A stretch of 9,022 nt of DNA from the sequence record KM389297.1. One strand, given 5' to 3'. The position numbers and the translations under genes are program-made. Position 1 is the stretch's first letter, and every line of letters starts with the position of its first letter. The notes under the pieces are model-generated. The model was not told the origin of the DNA and ran no database searches. It saw nothing but the letters and a program-made list of their open reading frames with translations. Origin of the DNA: Escherichia phage CBA6. Of this stretch, positions 6,151 through 9,022 are shown in pieces.

Positions 6151-6438
6151 ATGAAGAAATATGTTCGTCTGAACACTGTACTTGAATCAGTTATAGAATA
6201 TTTCATAATGCAGCACCTCAGAGCAGAAAATGAACACGTGAGCGACGCTCTGACTTATGATCACCGGATAGTGGTTCATTCCGTCGAAATAGTGGATGAC
6301 GAATTGTTGATTGCCAATGTTGAGCATGCTCTCTGGGATGAAGTGTTAGATCAGTACGTTCAACCGAAGTTCACACAGATCGAGTTATCTGCCATGTGGC
6401 CACCTGAAACAGTTTTCAATATTGATATACAAAGTTAA
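6151..6438 (+). CDS. Hypothetical small acidic protein (95 aa)
   Basis: ATG 6151 preceded by AGGGGG (6141-6146), 17 nt after the upstream stop. About 19 Asp/Glu against about 6 Lys/Arg. Confidence 0.5.
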   Translation: MKKYVRLNTVLESVIEYFIMQHLRAENEHVSDALTYDHRIVVHSVEIVDDELLIANVEHALWDEVLDQYVQPKFTQIELSAMWPPETVFNIDIQS

Positions 6439-6516
6439 TATTCACGTCAGTCCGCGCTATTCCAGCGTTCCGTTGTCTAACACAGAAGTGTTAACCAACT
6501 TTTCAATAAAAAGTGG

Positions 6517-6544
6517 TTTACATCTTCTAAAAAGGCAGTATATT
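6517..6544 (+). promoter_or_regulatory. Sigma70-like promoter candidate (-35 TTTACA, 16-nt spacer, -10 TATATT) for the 6612 gene
   Basis: TTTACA at 6517-6522; TATATT at 6539-6544. Contains the same AAAAGGCAGTATA motif (6530-6542) seen upstream of gene 32. Lies in a 173-bp intergenic region. Confidence 0.4.
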
Positions 6545-6611
6545 AATGTTCCAGACGCACAATTGAACATTAAACTGCCAAAGAAGGTTACTACACAAAA
6601 GGGTTTTTATT

Positions 6612-7571
6612 ATGTCCTATATTCTTCATATCGAGTCCGGCCTGAAATTTGAAATTGATGGTAAAACCGCTGCTGATCTTCAAGCAGAAATCAAAGGTGC
6701 AGACCTTATCATCGGCAACGTCACGTTACGCCGTATGATGGAAGGCGTCCTCCAGTCAGCCAACGGCTTTGAACTCATTGAAGGTCTGAGCCAGGAAGAG
6801 AAAGAAGAGACTCTCGAAGCTCTTGACCGCGCTGAAGCCGAAAAAGTTAAACCGACCGAAGATGCGGGGGTTAAACAGGGCGACGGTGAATCAAATCCGG
6901 TGATTGACGCCGAAGAAACGGTTGGGCAACCTGTCGGTGATCAAAATTCCCAGACCGTCGAAGACGGTTCTCTTGAAGTCAACAAAGACGGCTCCATTTC
7001 CCTGGTAGTTGAAGGCGAAGAAGTTCTTGACGAAGAAGCGCAAGCCCGTGCTGAAGAAGTTCGCCGTCGTATGCTGGGCACAACCGTTGCTGAAGCAATC
7101 GCCGACGTTGAAAATCCGAAGGATGATCAGGCTTTAGCGAACGCGAAGGCGGTTCTGGCCAAGAAATCTTCTGAAATGCGTCCTGCGTCTTCTACTGAAG
7201 AACGCAAGCGTCGTCATAACAAACGTGAAGAAATGGTTGAAGCCGCTCGTGCTTCTAACTATGGTCCAATCCTGGCGGCGGTTGAAGCAGGGGTTACTCC
7301 TGAAGTATATTTGAGTTATGTGAACCCTGATATGCGCTGGTTCCAGTTCCCTGTCACTGAATTGGCAGACGAAGCCAATCCGCATGCCCGCACTAACACC
7401 TATGTTGATCTGGCGCCTATCGTTTCCGGCGGCTGGGGTTTCAGTCTGTATGTGAATGGTAAGTCATTCACCAAGCGTCAGAAAATCAAAGAAACTGACG
7501 CTGAATCTCTGGTAAAGGCTATCAACGAATGGCTACCTCAGGCGTTGGCCGAAGCGAAAGCTGCTGCGTAA
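6612..7571 (+). CDS. Hypothetical protein (319 aa) with acidic low-complexity central region
   Basis: ATG 6612 with GGG-rich SD 8 nt upstream. N-terminal region (about 60 aa), then an E/D-rich segment (EEKEETLEALDRAEAEKVK...EGEEVLDEEAQARAEE), then a C-terminal domain (SNYGPILAAVEAGVTPEVYLSY...GGWGFSLYVNGKSF). Followed by a strong terminator. No family recognised. Confidence 0.6.
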   Translation: MSYILHIESGLKFEIDGKTAADLQAEIKGADLIIGNVTLRRMMEGVLQSANGFELIEGLSQEEKEETLEALDRAEAEKVKPTEDAGVKQGDGESNPVIDAEETVGQPVGDQNSQTVEDGSLEVNKDGSISLVVEGEEVLDEEAQARAEEVRRRMLGTTVAEAIADVENPKDDQALANAKAVLAKKSSEMRPASSTEERKRRHNKREEMVEAARASNYGPILAAVEAGVTPEVYLSYVNPDMRWFQFPVTELADEANPHARTNTYVDLAPIVSGGWGFSLYVNGKSFTKRQKIKETDAESLVKAINEWLPQALAEAKAAA

Positions 7572-7599
7572 TTTAACTCAGAAGCATTCAATAGATGAA

Positions 7600-7633
7600 G
7601 GGGCTGCTATAATAGCAGCTCCTTTTGTTTATT
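7600..7633 (+). terminator. Rho-independent terminator
   Basis: GGGGCTGCT-ATAAT-AGCAGCTCC: 9-bp stem with one G-U pair, then TTTTGTTTATT. Starts 29 nt after the stop at 7571. Confidence 0.75.
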
Positions 7634-7643
7634 GGAGCACACC

Positions 7644-7718
7644 ATGTCGTATTCGCTCAAAGGGTTGTTGAAGCGCCCCGTACATCTGTTTGCTGTCGAA
7701 GGGGAATATCCGGCATGA
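7644..7718 (+). other. 24-codon mini-ORF with strong RBS, ending at a TGA that is in frame with the downstream kinase
   Basis: GGAG (7634-7637) with 6-nt spacer to ATG 7644; translates MSYSLKGLLKRPVHLFAVEGEYPA then TGA at 7716-7718. The kinase ORF begins 6 nt later in the same frame. Confidence 0.3.
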
Positions 7719-7724
7719 GGAGAG

Positions 7725-8294
7725 TTGTATTACGTTAAAGGCTCCAACGGTAGCGGCAAGTCCACTGTCCCTTCCTATCTGGCGGAGAATGATCCTCAGG
7801 CGTATGTCGTGACCTACAATGGCAAGATCATGCTCACAGTTTGCCCTTCCTATAACATTATCTGTATTGGTAAATATGACAAGTCTAAGTCTAAAGGTGT
7901 TGATTCCCTGAAAGATACCGAGCAGATGTTGTTCGCCTTGTCCATTGCTGATCAGCCGGAATATCTGAAATATGACGTGTTGTTTGAAGGAATCATCCCT
8001 TCAACTTTGCTCAGCTCATGGATTCCCCGCCTGACGCGCCCACCGCGCGAATTAGTCGTGCTCTTCATGGACACCCCGCTTGAAACCTGTGTTTCCCGTG
8101 TGAAATCACGCAACGGCGGCGCAGACTTCAATGAAAGCCTGGTTGTCGAAAAGTGGGAGAGAGTTCATGACCACCGCCAACGGCATAAAGGCTTGTTCCC
8201 TACCGTTCCCGCAGGTATGATGAAGTCCAATGGCCTGACTATAGAGCAGGCTGTTTTTGCGTTTCTCAATCGTGATTTTGGGAGTATTGATTGA
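7725..8294 (+). CDS. P-loop nucleotide/nucleoside kinase-like protein (189 aa); substrate unknown
   Basis: Walker A GSNGSGKST at residues 6-14 after the beta-strand-like LYYVK. The only start codon in frame after the TGA is TTG 7725; GAGG at 7717-7720 gives a 4-nt spacer. Stop TGA 8292-8294 overlaps the ATG of the next gene. Confidence 0.65.
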   Translation: MYYVKGSNGSGKSTVPSYLAENDPQAYVVTYNGKIMLTVCPSYNIICIGKYDKSKSKGVDSLKDTEQMLFALSIADQPEYLKYDVLFEGIIPSTLLSSWIPRLTRPPRELVVLFMDTPLETCVSRVKSRNGGADFNESLVVEKWERVHDHRQRHKGLFPTVPAGMMKSNGLTIEQAVFAFLNRDFGSID

Positions 8295-9022
8295 TGGAAA
8301 TTTTTGCTTTAAACAATAATGATATGCTGAAGAAGGCTGTGTTGGCCATCCGTGAACACGGCATTGAGTCAGATCCTGGCAACGCAGAGATTAACACTGA
8401 CGGCACTCGTTTCATTGATGGTGTAACAATTACAGTATCAGATCCACGTGACCGTTGGCTTTCCGTTGAAGGCCGCAACTCGTCGGCAATTGCTGCCATC
8501 GGTGAGACATTCTGGGTGTTGTCCGGACGTAATGATATCCGTTTCCTTTCGAAAGTCTTACCCCGCGCCGCCAACTTCTCTGATGACGGTGTAACCTGGC
8601 GAGGCGCGTATGGCCCACGTCTGTACAATAATGGCCAGTTGGATAGTGTCATCAGCCGTCTGCGTAATAATCCCAACACCCGTCAGGCGTATCTCACCAT
8701 CTATGATCCGGCGCTGGACTCAGATGAAGGTTTGGCCACCCATAGTGAAACTGGAGAAGCCAAGACCAAGGACATGATCTGTAATCTTGCTCTATTGTTC
8801 AGTATAACAGAAGGGCGATTGAATATCACTGTCATTAACCGCAGCCAAGATGTCTTGTGGGGCATGAGTTCAATCAATTTCATTGAATTCTCTATCCTGC
8901 AAGAAGTTCTGGCGAAAGTGCTGAATGTCGAAGTTGGGTATTACAAACTGTTTTCTAACAATCTTCATTATTACAACAATGAAGTTAGTCGGAAACAACT
9001 CGGGGGTATCACTAAGAAGACC
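8294..9022 (+). CDS. Thymidylate-synthase-family pyrimidine hydroxymethylase (T4 gp42-like), 3' end beyond window
   Basis: Not in the ORF track because no stop occurs before the window end; hand translation of frame 8294 gives 243 codons with no stop. NPNTRQAYLTIYDP, DMICNLALL, INRSQDVLWG and NNLHYY match T4 gp42 (NPDSRRGIMIYTRP, FMCTNT, NMRSNDVVFG, GSLHVY) and the TS fold. Lacks the PPCH motif of true TS and has the longer hydroxymethylase-type insertion before the catalytic Cys. Confidence 0.8.
   Translation, partial: MEIFALNNNDMLKKAVLAIREHGIESDPGNAEINTDGTRFIDGVTITVSDPRDRWLSVEGRNSSAIAAIGETFWVLSGRNDIRFLSKVLPRAANFSDDGVTWRGAYGPRLYNNGQLDSVISRLRNNPNTRQAYLTIYDPALDSDEGLATHSETGEAKTKDMICNLALLFSITEGRLNITVINRSQDVLWGMSSINFIEFSILQEVLAKVLNVEVGYYKLFSNNLHYYNNEVSRKQLGGITKKT

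Follow-up and report, generated by a model that had tools for sequence, protein, structure and literature searches.

Results

A 5-hmdU DNA kinase gene with an interrupted 5′ part

We analysed a stretch of 9,022 nucleotides from Escherichia phage CBA6 (KM389297.1), which in its full length is called the window below. It belongs to a ViI-like Kuttervirus (Ackermannviridae) and shares 98.9% identity with both Vi01 and ECML-4 across its full length. The gene at 7644-8294 is located between the orthologue of Vi01_062c and the dUMP hydroxymethyltransferase gene, as in Vi01, and based on synteny and an identity of about 99% it is the orthologue of Vi01_061c (YP_004327432, ViI gp67). ViI gp67 is listed among the 5-hmdU DNA kinases and was assayed for this activity (PMC8989533; PMC5889632), and it is named '5-hmdU DNA kinase 1' in UniProt. 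Judged by gene order and sequence identity, the window carries the ViI gp67 gene of this phage; gp67 catalyses the first step of post-replicative thymidine hypermodification.

The 189-aa ORF in the window scored 355 bits against the Pfam family PF18748 (HMUDK_HMUD1), compared to 386 bits for the full-length Vi01 orthologue, at a cut-off of 27. The Walker A P-loop GSNGSGKST is encoded at 7740-7766, after the first β-strand, and its positions are invariant in 22 homologues. The kinase core matches that of ECML-4 completely and that of Vi01 at all but one residue. The allele in the window has the same gene position, the same ATG and the same ribosome-binding site (RBS) as ViI gp67. In contrast to gp67, Arg29 is replaced by a stop codon, the residues VKPP are missing and the longest ORF consists of 189 codons starting from a TTG. 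The features of the locus are summarized in Table 1. An earlier reading of this DNA (the original prediction) had placed a 24-codon frame at ATG 7644, its stop at TGA 7716-7718 and the kinase frame in the same phase from TTG 7725 to 8294, and all of these coordinates were confirmed. The TGA is followed by GGA and GAG and then, 6 nt past the stop and in the same phase, by the TTG.

Table 1. Features of the kinase locus (positions are those of the window)
Feature	Position	Strand	Remarks
Terminator-like hairpin	7597..7625	+	13-bp stem, TATAAT in loop region, then T-run; between upstream gene (ends 7571) and kinase gene
Shine-Dalgarno GGAG, native kinase start	7634..7637	+	6-nt spacer to ATG 7644
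Severed kinase N-terminus, 24 codons + TGA (MSYSLKGLLKRPVHLFAVEGEYPA)	7644..7718	+	Residues 1-16 and 21-28 of the relatives' 220-aa protein
Junction of 12-nt in-frame deletion	7690..7692	+	GTA AAA CCA CCT (VKPP, the relatives' codons 17-20) missing; from alignment to Vi01 and Maynard
Out-of-frame 7-codon ORF	7715..7738	+	ATG AGG AGA GTT GTA TTA CGT TAA; runs across TTG 7725
TGA nonsense codon	7716..7718	+	C-to-T transition at 7716; CGA/CGG/AGA (Arg29) in relatives
Shine-Dalgarno-like GAGGAG	7717..7722	+	Part of the relatives' Arg-Gly-Glu codons; ends 2 nt before TTG 7725
Kinase core ORF, TTG + 188 codons + TGA (8292-8294)	7725..8294	+	PF18748 positions 19-196 of 196
dUMP hydroxymethyltransferase gene start (thymidylate-synthase family)	8294..9022	+	Runs off the window; Pfam Thymidylat_synt on the orthologue in a 157-kb metagenome scaffold

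At its 3′ end, the stop codon of the kinase gene and the ATG of the dUMP hydroxymethyltransferase gene share one nucleotide (TGATG, 8292-8296). This is the classic −1 nt overlap of co-translated operon partners (PMC10666635) and points to a translational link between these two genes for hypermodification; therefore the premature stop at 7716 could also lower the expression of the downstream enzyme. The kinase gene normally ends in this TGATG overlap, which is distinct from the lesion.

The name of the kinase gene varies between databases. The RefSeq label of the orthologue (Vi01_061c in NC_015296.1 and many Ackermannviridae records) is 'terminase small subunit', and some GenBank records label it 'baseplate hub'. 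We traced the terminase label to PHROG 800, which the kinase protein matches at 1.7e-67. The real small terminase of Vi01 is Vi01_162c, and the terminase label is an annotation error that has spread through the records of an enzyme characterised by experiment.

Along the window, the nearest relative changes. Positions 1-4000 show only 10 differences from an ENA metagenome scaffold, positions 4000-6000 are the part most divergent from this scaffold (about 100 differences) and positions 6000-9022 differ from ECML-4 at only 6 positions. This mosaic relatedness in the sequence indicates recombination among Kutterviruses. The gp54-like baseplate tail-tube gene (3636-4775, minus strand) carries 3 of the 7 nonsynonymous changes that the window shows against ECML-4; its ORF extends to GTG 4775 (379 aa), while the relatives annotate 314 aa from 4580.

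The relatives encode the kinase in a single ORF

In the relatives, the same ATG opens a single ORF of 219-221 codons. This was found in Vi01, Maynard and ECML-4, in 20 IMG/VR loci and in the 157-kb metagenome scaffold, and in some annotated records the native ORF has up to 224 aa. An alignment over residues 1-220 was obtained for 22 loci and, with tblastn, for about 335 phage records. The comparison of the orthologous region, a check that had been proposed together with the original prediction, revealed an Arg codon at the position of the TGA in all relatives, within one continuous ORF.

For a closer look at the N-terminus we used 12 distinct sequences from Ackermannviridae, a set that reaches down to 79% protein identity. 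In all 12, Arg29 is encoded by CGA, CGG or AGA and the KPP motif is invariant. Synonymous codon variation among these sequences was observed at S2, K6, G7, L8, K10, R11, P12, V13, H14, F16, K18, P19, P20, V22, Y26 and R29. For instance, R11 is invariant as a residue and is encoded by CGC, AGA or AGG, and the invariant V13 uses all four codons. The pN/pS ratio was 0.21 for codons 2-31 versus 0.12 for the core, and V13, H14, F16, P19 and G30 show at least 90% conservation in homologues down to 52% identity. As judged from these substitution patterns, the 31 residues in front of the kinase core are under purifying selection. Positions 1-18 of the Pfam profile fall within this N-terminal extension. 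In the window, no complete PF18748 domain is found in one frame: positions 1-18 lie upstream of the TGA and four of those codons are deleted. In an AlphaFold2 model based on a 22-sequence alignment, residues 1-30 are ordered (pLDDT 80, 92 and 91), with a strand at residues 9-12.

Codon 32, the position of the TTG, is TTG in close relatives alone; more distant ones have CTC, CTT or ATC, and therefore there is no conserved internal start. By this comparison, the native design of the gene is a single ORF and the 24-codon 'mini-ORF' of the original prediction is the severed native N-terminus. An extension of 27 residues in front of the Walker A strand had been thought unusual, but it is the conserved state in all relatives. 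The residues of the 24-aa peptide are conserved, with the low pN/pS given above, but they are so as the N-terminus of the kinase and not as a separate peptide.

Truncated kinases annotated in vB_EcoM-ZQ1 and A221 (174 aa) were considered as further cases and rejected. In vB_EcoM-ZQ1 and A221 (locus 466-1125), the deposited CDS begins at an internal GTG past Walker A, whereas the DNA carries an intact ORF of about 219 aa from an upstream ATG; these truncations are start-codon miscalls.

Two lesions in the N-terminal arm

Compared with all relatives, the in-frame TGA is evidently a strain-specific nonsense mutation (CGA to TGA) beside a 12-base deletion. A nonsense mutation had been one of four options in the original prediction and is the one that the Arg codon of the relatives bears out. 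The deletion, which is in frame and lies inside the 24-codon stretch, is visible only by comparison with relatives. Its junction is located 25 nt upstream of the nonsense codon, and its placement is ambiguous by 2 nt (TG microhomology).

Within the kinase gene, nothing separates the window from ECML-4 apart from the C-to-T change at 7716 and the missing 12 nt. Moreover, the 12-nt gap is the sole indel across 9 kb in comparison to Vi01 and ECML-4. Over the whole window, 85 substitutions distinguish it from ECML-4 (74 synonymous, 7 nonsynonymous and 4 intergenic), and no frameshifts were found.

With respect to the origin of the lesions, a template switch was considered for the C-to-T change. 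The change raises the matches in a 9-nt quasi-palindrome (7713-7721 with 7793-7801) from 7/9 to 8/9, which is within chance, and this origin was rejected. The same applies to CRISPR escape, considered because a single protospacer would span both lesions: among GTDB representative and complete E. coli genomes, none had a spacer-like match to the wild-type segment.

The lesions are unique and are reproduced in a second assembly

We searched for both lesions in public sequences. The 12-nt deletion was absent from 218 matching phage records (blastn), in which the best identity across the deletion was 86.0%, corresponding to 12 gaps and one mismatch, and the pattern of the deletion junction had no match in IMG/VR. 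In each of the 45 near-identical phage records (45/45), it is precisely the T of the TGA that is mismatched. For the TGA allele and the deletion junction, pattern searches of the DNA, both exact and degenerate, gave no match in IMG/VR, JGI metagenomes and GTDB genomes, and in total the TGA pattern was absent from four collections; as a control, the same degenerate pattern with CGN found 15 and 2 loci. When the exact 189-aa product was looked up, it was recorded for a 9022-bp NCBI contig, evidently the window, and for a Logan assembly of SRR547957.

The Logan contig SRR547957_5 is identical to window positions 4213-8980, both lesions included, and SRR547957_9 is identical to positions 1-4017. 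The break between them (about 4017-4213) falls inside the gp54-like tail-tube gene. An assembler artefact behind the lesions is unlikely, because a second, independent assembly of SRR547957, probably the same run, reproduces both of them.

One alternative is that the lesions represent an error of sequencing or of the consensus, or a minority variant of this sample, and that the real phage has CGA and the 12 bases and makes a normal 220-aa kinase. No public relative shares the lesions, and the gene is otherwise identical to that of ECML-4. The contig spans only 9 kb of a phage of about 157 kb, suggesting low or uneven coverage, and the Logan assembly is even more fragmented. Two anomalies within 26 nt could also share one bad stretch of reads, and with both assemblies probably from the same run, a low-coverage consensus error or a dominant in-sample variant is possible. 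On the other hand, the independent assembler gives both lesions exactly, on an unbroken contig of 4.8 kb, and sequencing platforms do not typically produce 12-nt deletions by error outside homopolymers. The remaining 9 kb are free of indels and frameshifts, and this clean pattern, with a synonymous to nonsynonymous ratio of 74:7, argues for a good consensus quality. Taken together we regard an error or minority variant as rather improbable and infer that the phage population does carry the lesions.

Initiation signals upstream and downstream of the premature stop

The Shine-Dalgarno (SD) motif TTATTGGAGCA upstream of the ATG is kept in 22 related loci, with the minor variants TTATCGGAGCA and TTATTGGGGCT. 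The claim that ATG 7644 has the best RBS in the region was correct with regard to spacing, but not with regard to the pairing energy with the anti-SD, which is −5.6 kcal/mol at this site compared to −9.4 kcal/mol for GAGGAG at 7717-7722.

The TTG at 7725 had been described as the only possible start of the kinase frame, with a short-spaced SD, and we can confirm both. It is the only ATG, GTG or TTG in frame upstream of Walker A, and the next GTG and ATG follow after the P-loop. The SD spacing is 2 nt at this TTG, in comparison to 5-9 nt at the other gene starts of the window.

The same C-to-T change that produced the stop also created an ATG at 7715, which overlaps the stop as ATGA. An SD-like sequence, GAAGGGGA, is present 9-10 nt upstream of this ATG (−7.9 kcal/mol). 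The function of the short ORF at 7715-7738 can only be predicted; it could be a competitor of translation restarting at TTG 7725.

The hairpin upstream of the gene is annotated as a terminator in phage Maynard, and its sequence is kept in relatives including Aglimvirinae. It stands just upstream of the kinase RBS, and therefore transcription of the kinase and hydroxymethyltransferase genes must use read-through or a promoter that overlaps the hairpin.

Properties of a kinase without the N-terminal arm

Two kinases that lack the arm, M6 gp54 and ViI gp243, are active 5-HMUDKs in vitro (PMC8989533), and the 5-HMUDK of YuA has been purified and cloned for enzymatic assays. YuA gp13, the orthologue of M6 gp54, begins with MKYINVRGCNGSGK and has no arm, and in ViI gp243 the P-loop starts at residue 7; therefore the catalytic core has no universal need for the arm. 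The extension-less kinases (M6 gp54/YuA gp13 and ViI gp243) share with the predicted TTG product a first β-strand that lies only few residues from Met1 (MYYVKGSNGSGKST versus MKYINVRGCNGSGKTT). However, they are only 21-30% identical to gp67 and evolved without the arm, whereas the arm of the gp67 clade is conserved and is modelled as packed on the protein.

The truncated 189-aa protein was modelled with a pLDDT of 88 and a pTM of 0.84. The confidence of the invariant KSKSKGVD loop decreased from about 80 with the arm to 69 without it, which is weak evidence. By sequence, no solved structure was found for the kinase family, and Foldseek gave only generic P-loop kinases (TM about 0.45-0.5). By analogy to the arm-less enzymes, a restart product without residues 1-31 could work. 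The strong conservation of the arm in the clade, on the other hand, argues that the arm-less protein is impaired. In the relatives, the paralogue gp243 could compensate.

Discussion

We consider it likely that the locus carries two recent lesions in the conserved N-terminal arm of a 5-hmdU DNA kinase 1 gene, that the core can be made only through a restart at TTG 7725 or rare readthrough, and that the allele, probably a hypomorph or null, is tolerated with the help of gp243. In this scenario, ribosomes starting at ATG 7644 would release a 24-residue fragment. The kinase core would be made by termination-reinitiation or weak de novo initiation at TTG 7725, giving a product without residues 1-31, or by rare readthrough of the UGA. 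The output of core is expected to be low, because the start is a TTG, the SD is too close and the ORF from ATG 7715 runs across the TTG. The allele would then most likely be a hypomorph or null, and it may be tolerated by means of gp243, the second active 5-hmdU DNA kinase of ViI-type phages. That translation restarts, how much truncated product is made, how active it is and whether the paralogue compensates are all matters of presumption here.

In E. coli, reinitiation is still seen at +2 and +14 nt but mostly disappears at +38 nt; in reporter pairs, 30-95% of the coupling was kept at +2 nt and 80-100% was lost at +38 nt (PMC10666635). By analogy, reinitiation at +6 nt would be mechanistically reasonable. 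The reinitiation idea of the original prediction thus fails as a native design, but it survives in the mutant, where a restart at TTG 7725 would be the sole route to the core apart from rare readthrough.

A sub-case of this explanation, which differs from it in product amount and activity only, is that of a functional split gene, neutral or selected, in which efficient reinitiation at TTG 7725 yields normal amounts of a fully active truncated kinase. The stop-to-start distance of 6 nt is inside the E. coli reinitiation range, the strong SD-like GAGGAG is on site, arm-less 5-HMUDKs are active and the truncated protein models well. These points have to be weighed against a TTG start with an SD only 2 nt away, the new ATGA overlap leading into an out-of-frame ORF that covers the TTG, the strong purifying selection on the arm and the loss of Pfam positions 1-18. 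The downstream core has no further damage, but nothing can be read from this, given the evidently very recent origin of the lesions. In our estimation a fully functional split gene is therefore an unlikely outcome. Similarly, it is doubtful that we are dealing with a viable natural Kuttervirus whose arm-less 5-hmdU DNA kinase 1 is made only by reinitiation at a UUG 6 nt past an opal codon. If this were true, either the conserved arm would be dispensable for DNA-base phosphorylation, or gp243 alone would sustain 5-NeOmdU hypermodification.

Programmed decoding of the UGA (readthrough, selenocysteine or a suppressor tRNA) to a full-length kinase is very improbable. Of the stop codons, UGA is the one most prone to leakage in enterobacteria, and the frame continues in phase past it. 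However, the stop is absent in all relatives, which have an Arg codon instead, and the G after the stop provides a comparatively efficient termination context. No stable structure was found downstream (the fold z-score of +2.2 means a weaker fold than that of shuffled sequence), there was no Rfam match and the window contains no tRNA. In the relative Vi01, the tRNA cluster comprises Met, Asn, Gln, Tyr and Ser only and has no tRNA with a UCA anticodon. Even a readthrough product would still be without VKPP. The readthrough option of the original prediction is thereby abandoned as recoding, the stop being unconserved and structure, Rfam match and tRNA in the window being absent.

Regulation of the kinase by a native leader peptide or uORF, with termination-reinitiation, would fit the short ORF with its good RBS and the 6 nt between stop and next start, but can practically be dismissed, as the stop occurs in no relative, the 'leader' is an in-frame, selected N-terminus and the TTG is unconserved as a start. 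With the single ORF of the relatives, the selected N-terminus and the lack of a conserved internal start, the leader/reinitiation or native TTG start that the original prediction had favoured does not hold.

With two recent lesions in the arm as the preferred explanation, the correct annotation would be a disrupted, pseudogene-like or N-terminally truncated 5-hmdU DNA kinase 1 allele, and not a leader peptide followed by a TTG-started kinase. The significance beyond annotation is small. If the lesions are real, the phage would be a ready-made natural mutant for studying the requirement of the arm and the redundancy of the two ViI-like paralogous kinases. The published reconstitution work states that it is not known which of the five genes are necessary (PMC5889632).

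The premature stop is followed after 6 nt by an in-frame start (TTG 7725). Restart proteins after early nonsense mutations have precedents in lacI and T4 rIIB. With these restarts and with reinitiation coupling in E. coli, the window shares an in-frame start few nucleotides past a premature stop and an SD-like sequence nearby. In contrast to the lacI and rIIB restarts, the predicted restart in the window has a TTG start, an SD spacing of 2 nt and a competing ATGA start in another frame. The nearest known phenomena are restart proteins and termination-reinitiation coupling.
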